Shown here: positions 19,690-54,352 of the stretch, one piece after another
How positions within the stretch are numbered: position 1 is the stretch's first letter
Layout: every line of letters begins with the position of its first letter
From: a virus
Taxonomy: Duplodnaviria; Caudoviricetes
Direction: 5' to 3' (one strand)
Virus record (IMG/VR): IMGVR_UViG_3300035502_001274
Coordinates: 64,001 to 128,000 of that record
Length of the DNA: 64,000 nucleotides
Made by a program: the position numbers and the translations under genes
Notes under the pieces: model-generated
Database searches by the model: none
Told to the model about the DNA's origin: nothing
Seen by the model: the letters and a program-made list of their open reading frames with translations, nothing else

Positions 19690-20240
19690 TGATGATATAT
19701 TTTTGAAGATGCTGTCAAATTTGGAAGCTGCGTAAAATTTTACAAAATGGCATTTTAGGCCAAAAATGTACTGTATTAAAAATCTACATCCACATATCAT
19801 ACTATAGGGTGTTAGATTAGAATGGAAGCGCGTTGAACTTGTCATTTTCAACCGCACTTTTCTTTTTTATAGAGAAATTTTGAGGTCATTTTTAGACCTC
19901 AAAATTTTCTCAGAATTTCCAATTTAGATAAAAAATCGCGTAAATTTCTATTTTATAGAAATTTACGCGGTAATTTTACCGTATTAAAATTTTATATCCA
20001 CATATTATACTATGGGGTGTTAGAATAGAATGTACGCGTGACCTTCTTTTTTGGTCACGCACGTAGAATTTAAAAATAATGAAAAATGGTTTCTTTTTGG
20101 GTTCTTTAAGAGATATAAATTTAATACAAAAATCCAGAGAAAATCCATAAAAGAAATTATAAAATCTAGAGAAATTTAGAAGAAATTTAACCTGACTAAA
20201 GAGAGAAGATCCGAAGGATCTTCTCCCTTTAAGTACATAT
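19690..20240. repeat. AT-rich non-coding region with tandem ~52-bp direct repeats and long palindromes (candidate replication origin)
   Basis: Repeats 19773-19824 and 19981-20032; inverted repeats 19872-19911 and 19937-19969 (15-bp perfect arms). Confidence 0.6.
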
Positions 20241-20341
20241 TATTTCCATGAAGGAGGTACACAAATTGTATATCCCAAGAATTTTATTGGGAACGGTAAT
20301 ATCCAAACTCTATTTTCAATAAAGAAAGGAAGTAATAATCA

Positions 20342-25648: not shown

Positions 25649-25734
25649 CTCACATTAAAAACGGCTTCTACGAAAAATAGCTTACGTAGATGTCGTGAGT
25701 TACTGATGTCTGACGGAGCACTTTTTGAAATTTG

Positions 25735-25862
25735 AGGCACTTTTCATTTTCGTGAAACATCTAAGAAATGTTTGTAGTCTTGCCCGCCCGCTCCTTAATC
25801 CTCTATATAAGGTTGAATGCGCCGCAGGCGAGCGCGCCGCCTGCGGCGGCTTAAGCGCCTTC
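25735..25862 (+). other. conserved ~125-nt cassette leader element (copy 3)
   Basis: Shares motifs with 52191-52317 and 52676-52799; GC hairpin GCCGCAGGCG/CGCCTGCGGC. Confidence 0.5.
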
Positions 25863-26375
25863 ATGGCCAACGGAATTTTAGTGCCATTTAACGGCAGTAC
25901 TAATGGTGATGTGCAAAGTATCACCACGTCATATAGCGTATCTGCTACGGTTACGGGAGTTACATCTCTGAGTACTGGCAATAAAGGATCGACACGAGTC
26001 AGCATCAAGTCATTTGATAGTGTCGATGCAGATATTGCTATAATTACAATGCCGCAATTATCGGTTGCTGGTACAACATATTTCAGGTCCGATAATACGC
26101 AGTCTACAGTATGCTTATATTGGGAAATTACAAATTACAGTAGTTCATATACAAGTAGCAAGAGCAATATCGTTACGTATACGACAAATGGAGCATCTGC
26201 AACATTAACAGTTCCATCGTTTCGACTGATGATTACGCATACAACTAGCCCAATCGCAATCTATATCGTTGTGTATTGGACAAGCACGGCTTCGGGAGAT
26301 CGGTATGGCGGTGGATTTACTGCAAAGACATCGTCCAATATCACATTTAATTGCCGGCTGATCACTTTTGCATGA
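25863..26375 (+). CDS. Ser/Thr-rich beta-strand protein, tail-fibre/receptor-binding tip-like
   Basis: AT-richer codon usage than neighbours, S/T/Y-rich, no RBS next to ATG, own terminator 26378-26414. Confidence 0.5.
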   Translation: MANGILVPFNGSTNGDVQSITTSYSVSATVTGVTSLSTGNKGSTRVSIKSFDSVDADIAIITMPQLSVAGTTYFRSDNTQSTVCLYWEITNYSSSYTSSKSNIVTYTTNGASATLTVPSFRLMITHTTSPIAIYIVVYWTSTASGDRYGGGFTAKTSSNITFNCRLITFA

Positions 26376-26422
26376 ACTAAAGGAGACTAGAACCTTCTAG
26401 GTTCTAGTCTCTTTAAGTCGCC

Positions 26423-43667: not shown

Positions 43668-45020
43668 ATGGAAAGCGGTGAATTCTTCACTATGGAAAGT
43701 ATTTATACATTGGGAACCAGCAGTGCATCTCATACCTACGGCAACGTAGCGTCTTGGATCAAAGAATACCTGCTGGACTATTTTCCGCAGAACTTTTTCA
43801 CCTATACTTACATCGATTCTAAGGTGGCATGGAAGAATATTGCGGAGGTTCTGGGCAATGGCGAAGATGAGATCAAGAAACGGCATTATCCCTTCATGAT
43901 CATTACGCCCCGCTTCAATCAAAATCCCTCCGATAACTTTATGGCCAATACGCCTCTGACCATCAACATGGACAACACGGTATCGGGCTTGAGACGGAAT
44001 ACGCTCTTTCCGCTCATTGAAGACCGGAAACGGCAGATCGAATTGGCCTATAAGCTCAACGTAGACCGCATCGAGTTTGAAGTGGAGCTGAGACTGCTCA
44101 GTTTGGCACAGCAGCTGGATGTCTATAAGAATCTCCAGAATCAGATCATCTGGGATAGACCGTACTTGATCAACGTTGCCCTGGAATCCATGATTCCCAA
44201 AGCTATGATTGAGTATATTGGCAAGATTGCAGGCATCGATATCACACAATCGACGCCTGAGAGCAATCAAGTGCCCCTGATCATGCACTATCTCAACGGC
44301 CATTCTCGGCTGCCTGTCACCTACAAGGTGAGAAACTCGACCTCGGTTGATGAGTTCTTCATGTATTACCGAACCAGAATGCTCTTGGATTTCTCTGAGC
44401 TGAATCTGGGCGATGGCATGAAGAAGAACTCCATCAGTGAATACTATACTCTGACCTTCAGAGTTACCACAGAATTCAAACTGCCTGGACTTTATGCGCT
44501 CATTGGTGACCATTATCGGAAATACAATGGGCTGAAGTTCGATTCGGTGGTTTCCACACCCAGCATCGGTGGCTTGGACATGATCCCACTCTATACTTAC
44601 ACCAATCTATATGATAGAGATGACATGAATTCCGCCGATGGCTTCCAATTCTATACTTCAACCATCGTCCAGACTGACAAGGACAAGGCTGGGCAAGATG
44701 AGATTATCAAGTTGAATGAGATTGTGCCCACTGACCATATGGCGGTGCTGAATAAGCTCATTCATGACAATGTAACTCCTGAGACCATCTTCCGCTTCCG
44801 ATTGATCAAGAACTCCCATGAGCTGTTGGTCAACTGCGGAAATGAAGAATACGTCACTCCCTGTGAATGGGAGATTGATTGGCATAGAAAACGCATCGTC
44901 ATTCACAATACAGATCCAACGGCAACTTATCGGATTCTGACATATGCCAACTTGGTTCAGATCAACCAGAAGTATGGCGAGATGCAGGATCATATCAAGA
45001 GAGACGTTGGCAAAATCTAA
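43668..45020 (+). CDS. virion structural protein (tail/neck type)
   Basis: Late promoter 43642-43653; 450 aa. Confidence 0.6.
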   Translation: MESGEFFTMESIYTLGTSSASHTYGNVASWIKEYLLDYFPQNFFTYTYIDSKVAWKNIAEVLGNGEDEIKKRHYPFMIITPRFNQNPSDNFMANTPLTINMDNTVSGLRRNTLFPLIEDRKRQIELAYKLNVDRIEFEVELRLLSLAQQLDVYKNLQNQIIWDRPYLINVALESMIPKAMIEYIGKIAGIDITQSTPESNQVPLIMHYLNGHSRLPVTYKVRNSTSVDEFFMYYRTRMLLDFSELNLGDGMKKNSISEYYTLTFRVTTEFKLPGLYALIGDHYRKYNGLKFDSVVSTPSIGGLDMIPLYTYTNLYDRDDMNSADGFQFYTSTIVQTDKDKAGQDEIIKLNEIVPTDHMAVLNKLIHDNVTPETIFRFRLIKNSHELLVNCGNEEYVTPCEWEIDWHRKRIVIHNTDPTATYRILTYANLVQINQKYGEMQDHIKRDVGKI

Positions 45021-45117
45021 AATAAGCCCCCATTTCATGGACTGAAATAGTTCGTGAAATGGGGCTTTTAGGCGTATATTATTTACTTGACAATGCCAAA
45101 GAAAGGAGTATTAAAAT

Positions 45118-45870
45118 ATGGCAGTAAAAGATCTATATGTACCCTATGAGGACTTCAAAGAGTTAGTCCATCAAACAGAAAGCGGCCTGATGCGTGAGAT
45201 GATCAGACGCTTCACCACGCAGTTGGAGCAGAGATGTCGCATTGGCGACGATGACCTGCATCGCCTCGATGACATCACCAGCTGTTATCTCATGTACTAT
45301 CCCTTCACATCTCCCTTTGACCCGGAAAGATGCTGGTCTACCAGTTCTCGCTATGTGAAAGAGCGCGAGTGGTTGGAGGACCACAAAGGCGCACTTGACA
45401 CCTACACCGAGCTGCCCATCTTTGTAGAAGGCAATCGATTTGCCAATTACTACGAGAGAAGGCTCAAGTACTTCATCTCCAGCGCTATGAATCAGGAAGA
45501 GCTGGCGGCCGTTGAGGATTATCCAGTACTGCTGAATCAGGGCAGAAACTGCGCACTTGTCCTCAAGAATACCGAGCATCTCATTGAGGATCTGCAAGTC
45601 TCCAAGTATGGATATCTCTACTTCAGAGACCGTCATGAAAGCGTTATCCAGACAATCAACGGCTCTTATCTGCGGCCCAATAGCGCCGAAGATCTGTCCG
45701 ATTGTCCTGTATATTTCCTGAGCTGGATGCAGCTAGCCGAACCTAAGATCCCCAATCCCGACCGCTATATGACGGCAGTTCACTTCAAGGGCGAGATTGA
45801 GCAGCGCCTGGAAGACCAGCTCAGAATGGGATGTACGACGCTCTATCCTTATCAGTGGCTGGAGTATTAA
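45118..45870 (+). CDS. hypothetical protein
   Basis: ATATTAT 45076-45082, AAGGAG RBS. Confidence 0.75.
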   Translation: MAVKDLYVPYEDFKELVHQTESGLMREMIRRFTTQLEQRCRIGDDDLHRLDDITSCYLMYYPFTSPFDPERCWSTSSRYVKEREWLEDHKGALDTYTELPIFVEGNRFANYYERRLKYFISSAMNQEELAAVEDYPVLLNQGRNCALVLKNTEHLIEDLQVSKYGYLYFRDRHESVIQTINGSYLRPNSAEDLSDCPVYFLSWMQLAEPKIPNPDRYMTAVHFKGEIEQRLEDQLRMGCTTLYPYQWLEY

Positions 45871-45913
45871 GCAAATATCATTTCAGTAGAAAATCCTGAA
45901 AGGAGTTCATTCA

Positions 45914-47908
45914 ATGAAAAGACACGAAAGCATGCTGGAGTTCCAGAAGAGACTGATTCGCGTAGCGCTCCGGTCTCCCAGAAAGGAGGCAATGAACCTG
46001 CTCGGAATCGTCTGGAGCAATCTGGAGGAATTCATCAGAGTACGGATTCCACTGGACGACCACAAAGAAGATCTGATTCCCAAGTTCTTCGAAACGCTTG
46101 AGCTGTTTGATTCCGCCATTCAGCGCAAGTTTCCCAATCTCTACATGAGCAACGACCTTGACAAGGCGGACGATGCTCGAGAGATCATCTATGGATGCGC
46201 TCCCGATGCGAGTCCAGCGGAGCGTCATGAAGCCGCCAAAGCCGTCAGGGACGAGCTTTGCAATGCTGATAATCCGATCGGCCTCTTTAGAAATGGGATG
46301 TTCTATCACGTCAACTTTGTAGATAGACTCCTGTCAGAAGACGGCGAAGGGCTCTGCGTGGGCTGGTATCTGATCGAGGGAGACTCTGCCAAAATTGGGC
46401 CTCCTGAGAACACAGAGGACGAGCTGGAGTCCTTCATGCAAATCAGCAACTGGACCAGATCCAGAATGAGCGCGTTCCCCGATGTCAAGTTCTCGTTCGT
46501 GCCGACGGAATTTGATGACTGCCCGCAATTCGAGTATGAGAAAGGCGACCCTGATATCATGCCGTCCGGCATTCTGCGCTATACCATCAGCTACAGGAAT
46601 CCGCTCTTCCTGTGCTTTGATCAGGTTGCAAAGAAGATCCTGACAAGCGGAGAGCAGATCATTGACGATGGTATGGACTATGAGGCCGATCCGAGTGATC
46701 TCGAGAGTCTCCGGAGCTGCATCGTCGACTGCAAACGGGGCGTGAATACCAAGTTCGAGATGATCAGAACCGGATTCCGTGATGAAAACCTGTTCATCAA
46801 GCACCTGTATGCGAAGCTGTTTGGCATCGATTATGAGTCCAATAAGCTTACGGAAACCCACGAAGTTGTCAAACTTGCTCAGAAGATCCACCGGGGCAAG
46901 AAGAGCAGCGTTCTGAATGAGGCCTGGATGACCATTTACAGAACTGGCGAAGACTTCACTGATGCCAATTATGCGTTCATCATGTTGATTGCGGCGTTGC
47001 TGGGCCCCGATGCGCATTTCCTCATCGAGTGCAGAGCCAGAGGCGATGAGAAGAATAATCTGCTGCTGATGGACGCGCTGAAGTACTTCGATGCTGATGT
47101 GCATCTGATGGCCAACGGTTATGGCGGCTATAAAGTCCATGCGAAGATCTGGACGTTTGCCATGACCAAAAATCATACGGGTAAGGATGCTGAGCGTAAA
47201 GACCGCGTTTATCTGACGGCGTATTCGACCGGCAACTACGTGGAAAGTGCGCAGCATGGATTCTCCGACACGATTCTGATCGAGGAGTTTACCGCAAGAT
47301 ATCCCGCAGACCAGCCCGATTCTATGAAGTTCTGGAACGAGGTAGGCTTCCCCAAGAAGACGGTTATCGATCCAAATCCAGATCCGGATAAACCGACGTT
47401 GGACTGGAAGCCTGGTACGATCAGAAAGCGGCTTCTGGAACAGATCAAAGCCTCTACAGCTATGGCCAATCTCATCACGTTGAGCGGCGAGTCTCGTGAT
47501 CGGGATTATCCGTTCATCTTCATCAAGGTCAATCATCTGACCGATAAGAAGATCATCAAAGCACTGAAGGAAGCCGCTAAAGCTGGCGTTCTGGTCAACA
47601 TCATTGTGCGGACGACCTGCACGATCAATACCCAGGCAATACCCAATATTCACGTCAGAAGTGTCATGGGCAAATATCTGGAGCATGACCGGATGTTCCT
47701 GTTTGGCACTGGAAAGGTAGATGAATGCGTGAGAGTCAGACATGCCTACATCAGCACTGCTGATCTGATGCCGCGCAATCTGGATAACCGGATTGAGTTC
47801 ATGAAGCGTGTTGATGGAACGGCTGCAGGTTTCCTGCTTCACGTGTTCCTGACAATGTTTGAGACCAGCAGCATTCCCGAGGCTGGTTTCTTCAATTTCC
47901 CCGTCTAA
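45914..47908 (+). CDS. ppk1: polyphosphate kinase 1 (divergent)
   Basis: MLEFQKRL, SNLEEFIRVR, IECRARGDEKNN, KVHAKI, STGNY, KVNHLTD, GKYLEHDR, ISTADLMPRNLDNRIE. Confidence 0.85.
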   Translation: MKRHESMLEFQKRLIRVALRSPRKEAMNLLGIVWSNLEEFIRVRIPLDDHKEDLIPKFFETLELFDSAIQRKFPNLYMSNDLDKADDAREIIYGCAPDASPAERHEAAKAVRDELCNADNPIGLFRNGMFYHVNFVDRLLSEDGEGLCVGWYLIEGDSAKIGPPENTEDELESFMQISNWTRSRMSAFPDVKFSFVPTEFDDCPQFEYEKGDPDIMPSGILRYTISYRNPLFLCFDQVAKKILTSGEQIIDDGMDYEADPSDLESLRSCIVDCKRGVNTKFEMIRTGFRDENLFIKHLYAKLFGIDYESNKLTETHEVVKLAQKIHRGKKSSVLNEAWMTIYRTGEDFTDANYAFIMLIAALLGPDAHFLIECRARGDEKNNLLLMDALKYFDADVHLMANGYGGYKVHAKIWTFAMTKNHTGKDAERKDRVYLTAYSTGNYVESAQHGFSDTILIEEFTARYPADQPDSMKFWNEVGFPKKTVIDPNPDPDKPTLDWKPGTIRKRLLEQIKASTAMANLITLSGESRDRDYPFIFIKVNHLTDKKIIKALKEAAKAGVLVNIIVRTTCTINTQAIPNIHVRSVMGKYLEHDRMFLFGTGKVDECVRVRHAYISTADLMPRNLDNRIEFMKRVDGTAAGFLLHVFLTMFETSSIPEAGFFNFPV

Positions 47909-48040
47909 TAAGAAAGAGAAGAGTGACTGCAAAGTCACTCTTCTTTTTTTTGCTATCTTGATGTGTTACCGGAACTTCCGATTAACCGCGTTGTAAAATC
48001 ACACGGTTTACATTTCCATAATCGAAGGAGGAAGATAGCC

Positions 48041-48451
48041 ATGGCACTCGGTCAATATCAAAGAATCGAAGTAGGATTCGATCTGGATGATTTCCATAAG
48101 CCGATATGCTACTCTGGCGTTGACGCTTGGGTGCACCAGATTCTCCAATTAGCATTGATTGAACCTGGTACCATCCCTTCGAATCCCACGATCGGCATCG
48201 GCATGAAGCACTATGACTTCTTGATGATGGACGATCGTCGGAAGTTGGCGTCTGAAATCAATCGCCAGACTCCCATTTTCTTTCCCGACATGCCTTTTGA
48301 AAGCTGCACCGTGGATGTCCCGTCCGATGCTACGGCAGATCAGGACATCATCTATCTGTATATGACCTTCATAGTCAATTCTTCTCTAGAGACTGTGGTG
48401 GTTGCAGTTAAGAAGGGCTACCAATACATTGATTTCGCAATTGCTATGTGA
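48041..48451 (+). CDS. baseplate wedge protein, T4 gp25-like
   Basis: EPGTIPSNPTIGIG motif; AACC-N6-TA upstream. Confidence 0.6.
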   Translation: MALGQYQRIEVGFDLDDFHKPICYSGVDAWVHQILQLALIEPGTIPSNPTIGIGMKHYDFLMMDDRRKLASEINRQTPIFFPDMPFESCTVDVPSDATADQDIIYLYMTFIVNSSLETVVVAVKKGYQYIDFAIAM

Positions 48452-48478
48452 GATTGATTCCGAAATGAGGATTGTCTT

Positions 48479-50041
48479 ATGTCTGAAATGATGAATAATG
48501 ACCTGGAGCAGAAAGCTGCTGCCGCGCTGGCACGTGTGAAAACTGCTCAGGTGGAGTCTCCCAACATTGCTCCGCAACCTGACGACACCATTGCCCCGCC
48601 TCCCTCTGAAGAGGAGATGTCGAAGCTTGGTGCCGCAACTTCTACTGAAATCGATAAATCAGTCGCTGCTGATCCCGATGAAGAGACCATCTTTGCGGGT
48701 TCGTCAGCGGTCACTGCTCCCATCACCGAAGATGACGAAAGCGTGATCCTGACCTCTACGGCCAAAGCGCAGTTGGGCGATATGCCCGCTGCTGACCAAG
48801 ACGCGTTCCTCTCTAGTCTAATGCCCGAGATTGCTCAATATAAGAAGCAGCTCATTCTGGAGCAGGGTATGACCCCTGCCGAGGCAAACATCGCCGCTCA
48901 GAATCGGGCCAAGAATAAGGCAGCAGACGCCAAGAAGACCTGGGATGAAGAGCATCCCGAAGGCGTCGTCGTGACCATCGACAAGTCTCAAGAAGATAAA
49001 GTCGAGTTCACCGACGAAGAACGCCAGAAGATGGTCGTTTCCAAAGCGCTCAAACTGGTTGTCATTGAGAGCCAGGAGCTGGAGACGATCAAGGTCAAGC
49101 CCAGCTCTGATACCATCGCCATGACAGAGCTGCGGGACATCTGCGGCTCTCTGAGCCAGTATTCTGTCCCTCTGCTGGAATATGGCGAATATGCCACCTT
49201 CGCTGGTGCTCAGACTGGTGCACTGGCCAACGCCATCACCAATGAAGATGACGACATGCTCGATATTATCGAGAAGAAGGCGTCTCTGCTCTATAAGTAC
49301 TTCGTACGCGGTACTGTGAATTCCCGTACCGTTGTGGAAGGCAGCAAAACTCGGGATATGACCTACGAGGAGTTCTGCAACTGGTACAAGTACGACGACA
49401 TGGATATGGGAGTCTATGCCATCGTGACGGCCTCTGCTATGGAGGTGTCTGAGAGCACCTACAAGTGCCGCAATGAAGAGTGCCAGAAGATGTTTAACGT
49501 CACCTACAATAACAAGTCCCTGCTGGATCTCTCCGGGATTCCTGACGAGTTCAAGCATCGACTGGAAGATGTGGATGCCGCTCGGTCTTCTGCTGATAAG
49601 ATGCGGACGCTCCATGAGCGCTATTCTCATGGCACCCGTGTGAAGTCTCCCGTCTCCAAGAATATCTATGACATCTCTTCCTGCAGTATTGCGGATGCCC
49701 GCAATCGGGTCGAGAAGTGCATGGATCAGCTGGACGGCACCAATCTGATCGACTTGCTGCTGCTCCTGTACATCGAATGCATCTATGTCTATGACCCGGC
49801 CACCGATGACTACGTTCCCAAGAGCGTCCGTGAGCATCCCAGTGAGGCCTTCGATGTGATCTGCCACATTCACCAGGTGGATCTGGAGCTGCTCTACAAG
49901 TTTATCAGTGAGCACAAGTATACACCTTCGTTCAAGATCAAGGTGAAGTGCCCGCATTGCGGCCGCGAATCCGTCGATCCTATGAACGTGGATGATATGA
50001 TTTTTCTCCATGCCCGCGCTTCATTGACGGAGATTCAGTAA
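48479..50041 (+). CDS. baseplate hub assembly protein-like (T4 gp26-like)
   Basis: CRNEEC and C-terminal KCPHCG...MIF; follows gp25-like gene. Confidence 0.5.
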   Translation: MSEMMNNDLEQKAAAALARVKTAQVESPNIAPQPDDTIAPPPSEEEMSKLGAATSTEIDKSVAADPDEETIFAGSSAVTAPITEDDESVILTSTAKAQLGDMPAADQDAFLSSLMPEIAQYKKQLILEQGMTPAEANIAAQNRAKNKAADAKKTWDEEHPEGVVVTIDKSQEDKVEFTDEERQKMVVSKALKLVVIESQELETIKVKPSSDTIAMTELRDICGSLSQYSVPLLEYGEYATFAGAQTGALANAITNEDDDMLDIIEKKASLLYKYFVRGTVNSRTVVEGSKTRDMTYEEFCNWYKYDDMDMGVYAIVTASAMEVSESTYKCRNEECQKMFNVTYNNKSLLDLSGIPDEFKHRLEDVDAARSSADKMRTLHERYSHGTRVKSPVSKNIYDISSCSIADARNRVEKCMDQLDGTNLIDLLLLLYIECIYVYDPATDDYVPKSVREHPSEAFDVICHIHQVDLELLYKFISEHKYTPSFKIKVKCPHCGRESVDPMNVDDMIFLHARASLTEIQ

Positions 50042-50223
50042 TGAAGCGATTCATGGAGTTCGTAGACGACGTACTCGATGAATTTGACGGGCAATTACGA
50101 TATGACGATATTCTCCATATGACCTACAAGGAGATTGGCTACATGAGAGAGCATCGCAAGAAGCATCATCCCAAAGAAGCCAATCAACTTGCCAAAGCGC
50201 TGATGAATGCACCTTCAGCGTAA
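50041..50223 (+). CDS. small baseplate/tail assembly protein
   Basis: TAATG coupling; DDILHMTYKEI motif like small hub-assembly partners. Confidence 0.5.
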   Translation: MKRFMEFVDDVLDEFDGQLRYDDILHMTYKEIGYMREHRKKHHPKEANQLAKALMNAPSA

Positions 50224-50292
50224 CGCACGATCCATGGCGCTTCTTCCTGGCGGGAGAGTATTCGCATAAATAAGGAAGGAGCTAATCCAATT

Positions 50293-50580
50293 ATGCAATC
50301 AGCAAATACTGCCGCTCATTTTCTGAATTTATGCGATCGGCTTGTGATCGTTTCAGAATTGGTGAGCGATGAAAATCATAACCTGATGGGAGAGGTCTTT
50401 GACTCCCTGATGGATAGAGGCTATCCCTGTCTGGCACAGTTCTGCTCAGACGCTTGGGATATCAAGGACGCTGTTCATCTGTCAGTGGACGTCGGTGAAG
50501 AAGACTGCACTTTTGCCGTTACTCACGCAGATGATACGGCCACCTTGCACACTTACGCCAATCTCGATTTGGCGGTCTGA
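50293..50580 (+). CDS. hypothetical protein
   Basis: AAGGAG RBS; 95 aa. Confidence 0.6.
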   Translation: MQSANTAAHFLNLCDRLVIVSELVSDENHNLMGEVFDSLMDRGYPCLAQFCSDAWDIKDAVHLSVDVGEEDCTFAVTHADDTATLHTYANLDLAV

Positions 50581-50624
50581 AAAAAGAGTCTACTAGGAAA
50601 TTCTCCTAGTAGACTCTTTAAATC

Positions 50625-51032
50625 TCAGGTGATGCTGTAAAGATACCACACGAAGGGCAGAATGATGAGCTGAACCGCATGCAGCGTCTGATCGATAATC
50701 AGATTGATGGCATGCTTATTGGCTTTGGCGTCGTCGATCTTATAATGTGTCAGCGCATAGACCAAAACGCAGCAGAGCATCCAAGCTCCATCGATGAATG
50801 CCGGTATTCCCTTCATATAGATCACGTAGACAAGGTAGGGCAGATTGATGGCAATACTCCACTGGAGAGTATGTGCCAGAAGTGCCGCCTTGTAATCATT
50901 CTCGTACATCTCGTTGTAATTGGGCTGGTTCTTCCACCATTCTTGCTGCTTCATAGAAGCCATGATGCCCTGGTGACCGAAATCGTCACGAATGTGCATG
51001 TATACCGAGAGGATAAATAAGACGAACCACAT
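50625..51032 (-). CDS. DUF3307-like membrane protein
   Basis: H..DDF..Q, HTL.W, HYKIDD.K, DQTLH. Confidence 0.7.
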   Translation of the reverse strand: MWFVLFILSVYMHIRDDFGHQGIMASMKQQEWWKNQPNYNEMYENDYKAALLAHTLQWSIAINLPYLVYVIYMKGIPAFIDGAWMLCCVLVYALTHYKIDDAKANKHAINLIIDQTLHAVQLIILPFVWYLYSIT

Positions 51033-51118
51033 AAGAGTTCCTCCTTTCACGTAATTAACGACTTTGCTATTCACATATTATTTAGGTGAGTCAAGTTAAA
51101 TAAAGGAGGTTTACTTTT

Positions 51119-52087
51119 ATGGCTCTATCTATCAAGCGCGGTGCTAACTTAGAGTATACCGCAGGTATCACCCACGATACCAGATTCCACAGCGACGACG
51201 TCTTTGCGACGGCACTGTTGACTATGGTGGCACGCTACCAGAACGGAATTGATGTTTTTGCGGACAACGACGCATCCTACAAGAACGACCAGCCGGAGTT
51301 CACCGTAGCCCGTCTGCCCATGAAGATCGCCGAGGCCATTAGCAGCGCCTATGATTCCGAGTACATCCCCGGCGAGTACCAGCGCCGACATCTCGTGTTT
51401 GATGTTGGCAATGGCGAGTTCGACCACCACACATCTCCTCGTTTGACCCGGGAAAATGGGATTCCTTACTGCGCATTCGGCAAGCTCTGGATGGCTTTTG
51501 GGCCATACTTTGGGCTGCGCCCTGAGTACGTCAACGCTTTCGATGTGGATTTTGTGCAGTACATCTGCGCAAATGATAACGAAGGTGTACCCAATCCCAT
51601 CAGCTCTACCATCAGCCTGATGAATACGGATGACCCAAAAGACGATGAGGCGCAGCGCGCGGCATTCGACGGCGCCGTAGAGTACGCATACAAGACTCTG
51701 TGGTTTCAGATCAAGAACCTGCTGAAGCGTCAGGAGCAGTACAGCGAAATCACTTCCGGTGGTAGGAGCGTCAAGTGTAAGATGGGTGGGAGCGTCGTCG
51801 TGTATGACAAGTACTACACCGCCTATTCGGTCGAGGAATTGCGGCCCAATGATGTCGCCATGATTTATCCGCACAATAGAGGCGGCTGGGCGCTGCAGTC
51901 TCTGTGTGACCGGAAAGGCCCTGGCCAGCGTATCAATCGCTGGAAAGCTCCTGATGACCTCTGGGGCAAGCCCGAATGGGAACTGCGCCAGAGAATCCAG
52001 GGGCTGCGGTTCTGTCATGCGTCTGGGTTCATGTGTACCTTTGACGACTACGAGGAAGCGCTCGCATTCGCGATGGACTACGTGTAA
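51119..52087 (+). CDS. MYG1 (UPF0160) family exonuclease/hydrolase
   Basis: THDTRFHSDDVFA, DVG.GEFDHH, Y.AFGKLW, FCHASGF. Confidence 0.85.
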   Translation: MALSIKRGANLEYTAGITHDTRFHSDDVFATALLTMVARYQNGIDVFADNDASYKNDQPEFTVARLPMKIAEAISSAYDSEYIPGEYQRRHLVFDVGNGEFDHHTSPRLTRENGIPYCAFGKLWMAFGPYFGLRPEYVNAFDVDFVQYICANDNEGVPNPISSTISLMNTDDPKDDEAQRAAFDGAVEYAYKTLWFQIKNLLKRQEQYSEITSGGRSVKCKMGGSVVVYDKYYTAYSVEELRPNDVAMIYPHNRGGWALQSLCDRKGPGQRINRWKAPDDLWGKPEWELRQRIQGLRFCHASGFMCTFDDYEEALAFAMDYV

Positions 52088-52190
52088 TGCTGAAAGAAAG
52101 AGCTCAAACGAGCTCTTTCTTTTTTGTGATTTGTATGAAATAAATTTCCATAATTTTCCAATTTAATAGTACATATAAGTAACAGTGATT

Positions 52191-52317
52191 GGCTGGGTGA
52201 TCGGCGACGGAGTCGCCGCTGGTTATCGAGTCCTCGCTCCGCCCAGCCTGGTAAACCCGCTTAAAAATTTACGCAGCTGCGTGCGCTTGGATCATTGTGC
52301 TCTGAAGCAGTCCTTAC
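52191..52317 (-). other. conserved ~125-nt cassette leader element (copy 1, followed only by an ORF remnant)
   Basis: 28/34 identity block with 52766-52799; hairpin CGGCGAC-TCC-GTCGCCG. Confidence 0.65.
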
Positions 52318-52369
52318 CTTGAGAGCGAAAAAGTCCTTTGGGAGAAATCCCAAAGGACTTTTTCAACGC

Positions 52370-52675
52370 TTATGAGAAGCTAGTAACGATAAATGCTGTA
52401 ATAGATGTGTCTTTTCCATAATGCTGCATTTTATCGCTTGACATTAAATATACAGCGTTCGATCCATTAGCATATACTATACAACCGACTGCCAACGGCA
52501 CGCCGCTGAGCTGCAAACCTGTTTGATCGCAATACCATACTATAGCTAAAACTCCATTTGGGGATAATGCAATTGCTGTTGAATTTGAACTGCAATTAGA
52601 TGAAAGCCAATAGCCTGTCCAATTCGATATATTTGATGTTACGTTTAGTGCATTACATGAAATGACTTCTGCCAT
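52370..52675 (-). CDS. Ser/Asn-rich small beta protein, fibre-tip-like
   Basis: AT-richer codon usage, no RBS next to ATG, own terminator 52328-52363. Confidence 0.5.
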   Translation of the reverse strand: MAEVISCNALNVTSNISNWTGYWLSSNCSSNSTAIALSPNGVLAIVWYCDQTGLQLSGVPLAVGCIVYANGSNAVYLMSSDKMQHYGKDTSITAFIVTSFS

Positions 52676-52799
52676 GAGTTCAACGGCGCCGGGAGGCGCC
52701 GCGCGTCATCGACCTACATGGTGGTTCGGCCTAGAGCGCAGTTTAAAATTTATTCCGGCCAAATCCGCTTAGATCGTTGCATTCTGAAACAGTCCTTAC
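52676..52799 (-). other. conserved ~125-nt cassette leader element (copy 2)
   Basis: Homologous to 52191-52317; hairpin CGGCGCC-TCCC-GGCGCCG. Confidence 0.65.
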
Positions 52800-52912
52800 A
52801 GGACTGGGATTTTATCTCTTAATCGTCAGAATGTCAGCAAATACCGACGGAAAACAAGGCCATAACGTCTTAGAGTATAATAACGAACCTTTTGAAAGGG
52901 CGTGAAATAAGT

Positions 52913-54352
52913 ATGGCAATTACCGAAGAGCAAGTTGGCAATGCCGTTGACACTGTCAAATTTGCAACTTTGGTCAAGCAGACATATGGCCGTTCTAGCT
53001 TGACGCGCAATGCCAAGGACACCATCGCGCAGTTCCCGGTGATTATCTCAGCGGGTATTCCCACTGATGATGCTGTCATCATTGCCAAAGCCATTGAAGC
53101 GCAGTATGCAGCTTTGATGGTTTCTGTCATCTCGGCCAACTCTGACTATGACCGCGGCAAATACAATAACCCCGCTGACTATCTGCGCACTTTCCACAAT
53201 AACGGCAATATCCCCACACTGTTCCGGACCATGGACTCCCAGCTCCCTGAGGATGTTCATGCAATCGAATGCGAACTCGCCAGTGCTCGTACGATGTACG
53301 CCCTGGAGAGTCTGGTCGACAAGGATCTGGTGATGGAGTGCTGGGATAGCGTCGATGATCGTTTCAATACCAGCTCTCTGAATCATAGCTACAGACCTGA
53401 GAAGCACACACAGGATGCGATGGAAAGCGTCGTGAAGAATCTGCGTGCGCTTCATCGTCCTGCCATGGAAGCCGCTGCTGACGATGTCCTGGCTGCTGCA
53501 GGTGTGGCTGGCAATCGTGCTGGTAAAGATGATATGGGTGCTCCTACCAAAGCTGATAAGGTGCAAACCACACAGCGTATGGTGGCTCGCATGGATCCCG
53601 TTACCAATACTCCCGTTCGGAACGCCAAGAAGGAGATCATCTACGATAAGGTGACCACCAAAGATGAAGTCGTTCGTGCTCCCTCTGCAACTGGTCGTCA
53701 GGAAATCGTGCGCAATGATAAGCTGACTACCCTGGAGCCCACGCTCATCAATCTGCAGCTGAACTCCCATCATGGCAATGCTCCTGTCATCACCCACAAC
53801 GTGGTGATGGGTGTCAAGGCCATGATTCGTCAGATTCCGCAGCAGTATATCGTCTCCAACCTGATTGAGGGTGTGAATAACTCTCGGGCCATCTTTGGGT
53901 ACGTGAAGTTCACTGAGCACCCTGTCCAGACCTTGATTGATCTGGTGACTGGCTGGAGCACTGCACGGGAGACCGCTGTCTCCGACAGAGATATGCGGAA
54001 GTGGATCCAGGCACTGAAACGCCGCAAGACCAGCGATCTGATCGGTAAGATGGCTTCTGGTGAAGGTATGCCTCCTCTGACCACTATCGTGATCACTACC
54101 TATGAGGCAGAGCAGATCGCCGAAGCGACCAATATCGATCTAAACGATCCCTATGCGGCAGCCAAGCTCATCTCCAAGTATTATCTGCTTGGCTTTATTA
54201 TCTATGATTCTGCCACGGGCAAGGTGAAGTCCATCTTTGATGGTGACTCCAACTTCTCCGTGACTACCTTAAATGGCCTGAAGAGCAAGCAGCAAAAGGA
54301 TCAGGAACTGACTCAGTTTGCTTCCTTCCTGCGAGCTTCTGGCAGAATGTGA
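52913..54352 (+). CDS. virion (head) protein
   Basis: Late promoter 52853-52864; ALE/AME motifs. Confidence 0.6.
   Translation: MAITEEQVGNAVDTVKFATLVKQTYGRSSLTRNAKDTIAQFPVIISAGIPTDDAVIIAKAIEAQYAALMVSVISANSDYDRGKYNNPADYLRTFHNNGNIPTLFRTMDSQLPEDVHAIECELASARTMYALESLVDKDLVMECWDSVDDRFNTSSLNHSYRPEKHTQDAMESVVKNLRALHRPAMEAAADDVLAAAGVAGNRAGKDDMGAPTKADKVQTTQRMVARMDPVTNTPVRNAKKEIIYDKVTTKDEVVRAPSATGRQEIVRNDKLTTLEPTLINLQLNSHHGNAPVITHNVVMGVKAMIRQIPQQYIVSNLIEGVNNSRAIFGYVKFTEHPVQTLIDLVTGWSTARETAVSDRDMRKWIQALKRRKTSDLIGKMASGEGMPPLTTIVITTYEAEQIAEATNIDLNDPYAAAKLISKYYLLGFIIYDSATGKVKSIFDGDSNFSVTTLNGLKSKQQKDQELTQFASFLRASGRM

Follow-up and report, generated by a model that had tools for sequence, protein, structure and literature searches.

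What are two homologous minus-strand stretches, copy A (52676-52812) and copy B (52165-52322), doing in the interval that separates a plus-strand MYG1-like gene at 51119-52087 from the virion structural gene at 52913-54352, also on the plus strand, and how do they relate to the small ORFs behind them? The window in which they lie is a stretch of 64,000 nucleotides corresponding to bases 64001-128000 of the IMG/VR record G000 (188,841 bp, estimated to be 76% complete), which we compared with three further records, G001 (69 kb), G002 (83 kb), and L070 (a 16-kb piece of an ENA scaffold of 148.8 kb). A preliminary description of this DNA had proposed that the repeats lead in a conserved frame into silent 3' modules, with a control leader as the alternative.

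The locus near 52 kb and its copies in related phages

Both sequence reading and alignment bear out the homology of A and B, together with most of the anatomy first described. The common block of 34 nt (52766-52799 versus 52284-52317) differs at 6 positions, all of them transitions as read, and the AT box, the motif TCGAT(A/G)A, and a GC hairpin with a compensatory change (52683-52702 in A, 52202-52218 in B) are found in both copies. The 17-mer core occurs twice in the window, a count that was equalled by 1 of 100 shuffled sequences. Furthermore, the 101-aa ORF behind copy A (ORF101) is indeed AT-richer, at 38% G+C, and has no Shine-Dalgarno (SD) site, and a hairpin terminator closes each of the two units. 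The order of the locus is leader A, ORF101, terminator, leader B, a short open-frame stump, and a bidirectional terminator, with the leaders built on an upstream hairpin (HP1, of which one arm is left in B) and a second hairpin (HP2) further downstream:

52790..52806, minus strand: HP1 of cassette A, a 7-bp stem with a GTA loop, followed by TTTCAGA
52766..52799, minus strand: 34-nt conserved 5' block of cassette A, from the 3' half of HP1 to GATCTAAGCG
52742..52752, minus strand: AT box of cassette A, a degenerate version of the TAAATTTTTAAGCGGG box
52683..52702, minus strand: HP2 of cassette A, a GC hairpin
52370..52675, minus strand: ORF101, a Ser/Thr-rich orphan gene, SD-less, 38% G+C
52328..52363, minus strand: intrinsic terminator of ORF101, adjoining the next leader (by reading)
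52284..52317, minus strand: conserved 5' block of cassette B, with HP1 reduced to its 3' arm
52250..52276, minus strand: box CTGCG-TAAATTTTTAAGCGGG-TTTACC of cassette B
52202..52218, minus strand: HP2 of cassette B, a 7-bp GC stem with a TCC loop
52163..52201, minus strand: payload stump of cassette B, a short open frame running to TAA, without a start codon
52092..52123, no strand assigned: bidirectional terminator closing cassette B and the convergent MYG1-like gene

In cassette A, the distance from HP2 to the ATG is 7 nt if the minimum free energy stem with its closing G-U pair is taken and 9 nt for the 6-bp core stem. The stump of cassette B may be the remnant of an ORF lost by deletion.

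The element is more widely dispersed than had been claimed. A scan of the whole genome and its relatives found additional copies in all four records, giving at least five units in the 189-kb G000 and 14 in the three related records. Besides A and B, these are the following:

25700..25865 of the window, plus strand: diverged leader D, with an early-promoter-like motif, HP1 at 25755-25773, and HP2 at 25820-25848
25863..26375 of the window, plus strand: ORF170 of cassette D, an SD-less, Ser/Thr-rich orphan with 41% G+C
26383..26422 of the window, plus strand: terminator of cassette D
169603-169776 of G000: copy C, before a 158-aa ORF
357-487 of G000: copy E, before a 166-aa ORF
G001: six copies
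L070: five copies
G002: three copies

The units follow a common plan, consisting of HP1, an optional middle part, HP2, an SD-less ATG, an AT-richer, Ser/Thr-rich orphan ORF, and an intrinsic terminator. One leader in L070 comes after a stop codon without an intervening terminator, indicating that cassette units are not always monocistronic.

With respect to the phages themselves, an INPHARED search returned no near relative of G000 among deposited phages, and a locus search with a single protein (that of the virion gene neighboring the A/B locus) gave no matches. G000 has proteins at 60-80% identity in common with L070 and G002, and one protein is common to L070 and G001, indicating that all four records represent one phage group; G001 probably covers the part that is absent from G000. 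G000 is a jumbo phage of an uncultivated clade with multisubunit RNA polymerases of the phiKZ/AR9 type, and a beta-like protein of such a polymerase is encoded in its genome. Its resident genes have strong SD sites of the form GAAAGGAGG, with an SD present in 126 of 189 ORFs, and two motifs recur upstream of its genes. The first, ATATCAT, has 25 intergenic copies, while the second, AACA-N6-TA(A/G) (mostly AACAYCC-N3-TAA), has 21 of its 27 copies in the intergenic 11% of the genome and resembles the AR9 late promoter, AACA-N6-TA/G (PMC5312081). ARAGORN found no tRNA in the window.

The cassette ORFs and the question of in-frame fusion

The cassette ORFs are 100-280 aa long and deviate from their surroundings in G+C content (0.38-0.44 in G000 versus ~0.48 for the genome, and 0.32-0.44 across all records versus 0.43-0.49 in the neighborhood). 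Ser, Thr, Asn, Gly, or Tyr make up 45-54% of their residues and charged residues 6-14%, and most of the ORFs start with Met-Ala/Ser-Glu/Asp/Asn and end in a hydrophobic-aromatic strand. Two families can be followed across records. ORF101 has two relatives with which it aligns from residue 1 to the C-terminus, one of 102 aa in L070 (38% identity, E = 3e-15) and one of 111 aa in G002 (32% identity, E = 2e-9), and both have leaders of their own that differ in sequence. The ORF166 family, comprising cassette E of G000 and cassettes a and b of G001, shows 82% identity over the first 105 codons with a dN/dS of 0.047, and its nucleotide homology starts within 4 nt of the ATG, the leaders being unrelated. 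These comparisons show the cassette ORFs to be real genes, evidently translated from their own Met.

What the proteins resemble is a different matter. Word-index searches gave no homologues of ORF101, ORF158, or ORF170, and an exhaustive search with ORF101 retrieved one true relative in addition to repeat-protein noise. Pfam and PHROGs returned no match for the orphan ORFs, and for ORF166 only families of unknown function; the N-terminal domain of ORF166 also occurs in larger Clostridia-type phage proteins, which are unannotated and have ordinary SD sites. A profile search against PDB gave no matches, and fold matches in the ESM Atlas stayed in the chance range (scores of ≤0.83). The AlphaFold model of ORF166 (28 sequences) reached a pLDDT of 62, with no PDB match below E = 1, and that of ORF101 (2 sequences) is unusable, with a pLDDT of 36.

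According to the preliminary description, these ORFs may be silent or swappable 3' receptor-binding tips that DNA recombination or joining at the RNA level would attach in frame, at the hairpin, to a separately encoded N-terminal part. The ORFs are small and beta-rich and have few charged residues, as tip domains do, and the ORF166 family combines a constant N-terminal domain with a variable C-terminus. Moreover, the in-frame reading itself (TGA-RAAPPGAVEL-M in A, TAA-PAATPSP... in B) is correct as read, and in A, B, and copy f the frame stays open across HP2 after a stop within TCGAT(A/G)A. The same reading nevertheless fails in most other copies: of 15 leaders, 6 (d, e, h3, g3, g4, and E) have an in-frame stop within HP2 or behind it, and the distance from HP2 to the ATG is not fixed (6-16 nt), indicating that the frame of A and B is a coincidence of three copies. 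Protein conservation from Met1 in the ORF101 and ORF166 families likewise speaks against modules that lack a beginning, as does the 100% identity of the ORF101 locus in both of the other metagenome contigs fetched. A long tail-fiber gene with the hairpin in frame was looked for, and no piece of a leader recurs inside any long ORF.

The description had seen no recombinase or reverse transcriptase (RT) in the window, and the same holds for the 258 kb of G000 and G001, from which RT (PF00078), serine recombinase (PF00239), tyrosine integrase (PF00589), and Y1 transposase (PF01797) are absent, with positive controls; the fusion would thus be left without RT, invertase, integrase, or transposase. 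Homology from the start Met, a dN/dS of 0.05, the in-frame stops, and the lack of an RT or recombinase together mean that in-frame fusion is not supported. We regard it as extremely improbable and largely refuted, and the finding offers no new diversification machine. Invertible fiber segments (Mu G, P1 C) and diversity-generating retroelements act on a single gene, whose 3' parts they fuse or rewrite, and depend on an invertase or an RT. The cassettes have in common with them that alternative variable protein modules are present in phage genomes, but differ in having neither enzyme (in G000 and G001) nor an in-frame junction.

What is retained from the original proposal is that the small ORFs are variable, each closed by a terminator, and swappable. 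The control leader, initially mentioned as the alternative, is now the favored reading: the repeats are probably the 5' leaders of self-contained accessory cassettes, similar to morons and to the promoter-early stem-loop (PeSL) cassettes, that have a dedicated expression leader and are swapped as whole genes.

Two hairpins and the possible level of control

Hairpins were tabulated by script, and HP1 is present in 16 of the 16 leaders covered, with seven different stems that are each perfectly paired. Most copies have an AGTC/GACT base, a loop of GTA, AAG, or TAAG, and a GTT tail, and two diverged copies have the loop CTA or CTAAGAA. AAGGA-like bases are displayed at the HP1 loop in every case, and, by reading, no conserved leader peptides follow them. 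The pattern AGTC-N(2-5)-AAG-N(0-5)-GACTGTT has 11 matches in the 341 kb of G000, G001, and G002 versus 0 for a reversed control, and we observe no HP1-type hairpins outside cassettes in G000 or G001. Exact-match scans for HP1 variants in metagenomes gave no matches.

HP2 is a stable hairpin close upstream of the ATG in every leader, with sequences unrelated between copies. Stems vary from copy to copy and still pair fully, with near-full pairing in a few HP2s. The part between the two hairpins is variable and dispensable: leaders in G002 measure ~85 nt, barely more than HP1 and HP2 themselves, and the distance from HP1 to the ATG ranges from 70 to 200 nt. Where the TAAATTTTTAAGCGGG box is present, it sits in this middle part (B, C, d, and e) and is confined to cassettes, and the AT box has three occurrences in 189 kb, all of them within cassettes. 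Leaders fold better than shuffled sequences (z of -2.4 to -3.75), forming HP1, a closed middle domain, and HP2. Furthermore, if the 189 ORFs of G000 are filtered for absence of an SD combined with a hairpin of ≤ -12 kcal/mol within the final 40 nt, the four cassette ORFs and no others remain, and across the cassettes there is no SD, save a possible one in g5 of L070. These sequence comparisons show the leader to behave as a modular signal specific to the cassette gene class.

If the repeats are expression leaders, as we favor, each would be transcribed together with its gene, with HP1 located at the transcript's 5' end, or close to it, and exposing an SD-like AAGGA, and HP2 gating initiation at the SD-less start. 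Such gating would place the cassette class under a post-transcriptional or translational regime of its own, apart from the SD-led residents. As for transcription, cassettes are opposed to their neighbors and preceded by terminators and should therefore be autonomous. Both resident promoter motifs are absent from the leaders, save an early-like motif before HP1 in D and a weaker one in E and h2, and late and early matrices built from the sites of G000 itself do not score in the leaders, except for the early matrix in D and E (~12 bits). A sigma-70-like site (10/12) adjoins HP1 in copy A only and is not conserved across copies.

Folding shows no preference for one strand: sense and antisense are on a par overall, the sense strand doing better in 8 of 16 leaders. 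The stems of HP1 lack G-U pairs, so that DNA hairpins fit as well as RNA. A reading that we judge unlikely is that of a DNA-level hairpin promoter, with HP2 or HP1 extruded as a template-strand hairpin and read by a phage polymerase as at N4 early promoters. With transcript starts only a few nucleotides ahead of the ATG, the lack of an SD would be accounted for. Promoters of the N4 virion RNA polymerase have a 5- to 7-bp stem and a 3-nt loop and tolerate variable stem bases if these are paired, with loop rules of -12A, -11 purine, and -10G (PMC4496689). HP2 in G000 and G001 comes close to this form, being a 7- to 9-bp GC stem with a 3-nt loop of TCC or TTC on the coding strand, which gives G-purine-A on the template strand, closed by C:G (6 of 7 perfect triloops). 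The N4 loop form is present in B, C, a, b, c, and e and nearly so in A (4-nt loop TCCC), and the apex of the g1 and g2 hairpins of L070 has it as well; core stems are pure Watson-Crick with bases free to vary if paired, and GC-rich triloop hairpins are almost restricted to cassettes.

The likeness to N4 promoters has its limits, however. D, E, d, f, g3 to g5, h2, and h3 do not fit the loop form, HP2 in all of these except f being long, imperfect, or furnished with other loops (GAA on the coding strand in h2 and h3), and of the N4 determinants, neither -8G nor +1C is conserved in the cassettes. No N4-like polymerase was found: the search for the single-subunit family PF00940 was silent in these incomplete genomes, as was its control, and the largest ORF, a giant of 2833 aa, has lysin-like domains and no polymerase domains. 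In addition, a hairpin promoter at HP2 leaves the conserved HP1 and the box unexplained.

Termination within the leader has to be weighed as well. Transcription from the HP1 region would then mostly stop at HP2, making the leader a small RNA or attenuator, with the ORF made on read-through only. Roughly half of the HP2 copies have a U-rich run behind them, copy B consists of a leader with no gene, and the excess of structure over shuffled sequences is what such an element would display; small RNAs derived from 5' untranslated regions by premature termination are known from the giant phage 201phi2-1 (PMC11512511). Against this, HP2 of A, C, and D has no U tract, and the middle of the leader can be dispensed with, as in the 85-nt leaders of G002. 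Rfam 15 gave no family match, with only sub-threshold, terminator-like matches at permissive E-values, and attenuation alone leaves the translation of SD-less ORFs unexplained. We therefore consider this reading quite unlikely.

A further step would be to regard the two-hairpin leader as an undescribed expression device of jumbo phages that have their own polymerases, either a template-strand hairpin promoter yielding near-leaderless mRNAs or a structured RNA recruiting ribosomes to SD-less starts in a host whose translation relies elsewhere on strong SD sites, a claim that we hold to be doubtful. If it were true, the phage would gain a separately controlled, easily exchangeable gene class. 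The leader of E. coli rpsA provides an SD-less, structured initiation region with GGA in hairpin loops, and STAB-SD of B. thuringiensis cryIIIA acts as a 5' stabilizer. The cassettes are similar to these in having no SD by the start codon, hairpins upstream, and an SD-like AAGGA far upstream at the HP1 loop, but differ in that the interval between HP1 and the ATG is long and variable.

Exchange of cassettes and likeness to known systems

Cassettes that are otherwise unrelated have in common only blocks of 20-60 nt in the leader, which occur in mosaic combinations. The 5' block of A recurs with a and b (95% identity over 40 nt between A and cassette a of G001), and the box of B recurs with C, d, and e (90-100% identity over 28-41 nt). 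In L070, two pairs of near-identical leaders precede different ORFs, which are unrelated in one pair. G002 and L070 are 97.7% identical over a stretch that runs from gene X across the spacer, HP1, and the leader to a point ~15 nt into the ORF; beyond the ORF, identity of 94.9% covers the terminator and leads on into the helicase. The 139-aa ORF lying inside these conserved flanks resembles neither of the L070 ORFs. The layout is what an inversion of gene X between g1 and g2, two inverted leaders, would produce. Cassette h3 of G002 sits between homologues of G000 126798-128177 and 128359-129534, where G000 has only a terminator, and relatives of ORF101 are found at three different loci.

These comparisons show leader blocks and terminators as constant flanks between which whole ORFs appear to have been gained, lost, and replaced among related phages. 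The end states in these few genomes point to recombination at the leaders, and the repeated leaders would supply portable homology for it, as PeSLs do in T4-type phages. Alternatively, the cassettes could be IS200/IS605-like or integron-like transposable elements that are non-autonomous and rely for their movement on a site-specific enzyme recognizing the terminal hairpins: there are hairpins at both cassette ends, presence and absence at a precise site, and one ORF family at different loci. We find this very improbable, given that the Y1 transposase, integrase, and resolvase were not found in G000 or G001, that no target duplications were noticed, that the 3' hairpins are ordinary terminators of a genome-wide type, and that the mosaic breakpoints within leaders fit homologous recombination.

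As self-contained, exchangeable units, the cassettes invite comparison with two known systems. In T4-type phages, PeSLs serve as mobile regulatory cassettes; an early promoter of sigma-70 consensus defines them, and an SD stands at their end (PMC2839356, PMC4122927). The leaders described here are likewise short, repeated, composite regulatory sequences with a stem-loop (HP1 and HP2 in every leader), are located directly upstream of ORFans in the variable parts of a large phage genome, and mark the points at which indels and ORF replacements between close relatives break. Unlike PeSLs, they have no conserved sigma-70 promoter or recognizable resident-class promoter and, apart from the possible exception in L070, no SD at the 3' end of the motif; they have two covarying hairpins instead of one, the second at the start codon, and the phage transcribes with its own multisubunit polymerases.

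Morons were defined on temperate phages, with a host-type promoter and expression from the prophage (Juhala et al. 2000, reviewed in PMC3594210). The cassettes are similar in being extra genes between conserved genes, with deviant base composition and their own terminator, present in one phage and absent from the same site in a relative (h3 of G002 versus G000). They differ in belonging to a jumbo phage in which no integrase was found and in sharing one stereotyped leader among all units. In genomic behavior, the cassettes agree with both PeSLs and morons, which are the nearest systems described.

For jumbo phages that bring their own polymerases, two or three promoter classes are assumed. The cassettes constitute a third, sharply delimited gene class, with a stereotyped two-hairpin leader and no ribosome-binding site, amid residents with strong SD sites. 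They offer a handle on how orphan genes are acquired, expressed, and exchanged in jumbo phages, and on SD-less translation, or hairpin-proximal transcription, in a host of the Clostridia type. In practical terms, the leader can serve as a marker as well, since the flexible gene pool of related metagenomic contigs can be located with a simple pattern.

Promoter-like motifs and terminators

Across the whole 188,841-bp record (G000), we observe a late-promoter-like motif, AACA-N6-TA(A/G), most commonly in the form AACAYCC-N3-TAA, with 21 of its 27 copies being intergenic, compared with an intergenic share of only 11% of the genome. By sequence, this motif resembles the promoter of the AR9 non-virion polymerase. 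A second motif, ATATCAT, is early-promoter-like and is present in 25 intergenic copies in the whole record; it usually has CCA before it and TTT after it, and often a Shine-Dalgarno sequence 25 to 45 nt downstream. Furthermore, terminators of G000 and of the related jumbo-phage records G001, L070, and G002 have one stem family in common, GA(A/G)(A/G)CTAC...GTAG(C/T)(C/T)TC flanked by an A/T run. In all four records, these terminators look like a repeated signal, which is possibly polymerase-specific.

Examples of these signals in the window
52853-52865 (+), late-promoter-like motif upstream of a virion structural gene
33739, 35084, and the 59421 region, early-promoter-like motif ATATCAT
26383-26422, terminator of the common stem family, one example among many gene ends

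AT-rich, gene-free region of the window

Positions 19700-20250 of the window are AT-rich and without genes, and hold two direct repeats of 101 nt, each with an early-type promoter, as well as a perfect 15-bp inverted repeat beginning CGCGTAAATTT. In the same region, GCTGCGTAAAATTTT (19722-19740) is similar to GCTGCGTAAATTTT, the box conserved in the middle part of some cassette leaders, and the two may represent a common, putative protein-binding site.

Genes associated with cassettes and regions outside the window

Adjoining the cassette pair immediately is a phage-encoded gene:

51119-52087 (+), MYG1-family (UPF0160) protein

In cassette b of G001 (900-1135; L028), one base present in the cassette a counterpart is missing from the ORF166-family payload gene, leading to a frameshift past the sixth codon; the gene is a pseudogene, or else the shift stems from an error in the assembly.

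Outside the window, an ORF of 2833 aa (G000 44156-52657) is similar, at residues about 1960-2370, to cell-wall hydrolases of the PlyCA and amidase types from phages of Gram-positive hosts; its product is likely a virion-borne lysin or a tape-measure-like giant protein. tRNA T-arm-like strings (GGTTCGAATCC) in the flanking sequence, at about 39.3-39.7 kb and 54.3-54.5 kb of G000, are probably tRNA genes, with none found in the window. About 5 kb at 18-23 kb of G000, where all ORFs are short and implausible and Shine-Dalgarno sites are absent, appears to be a large non-coding stretch.
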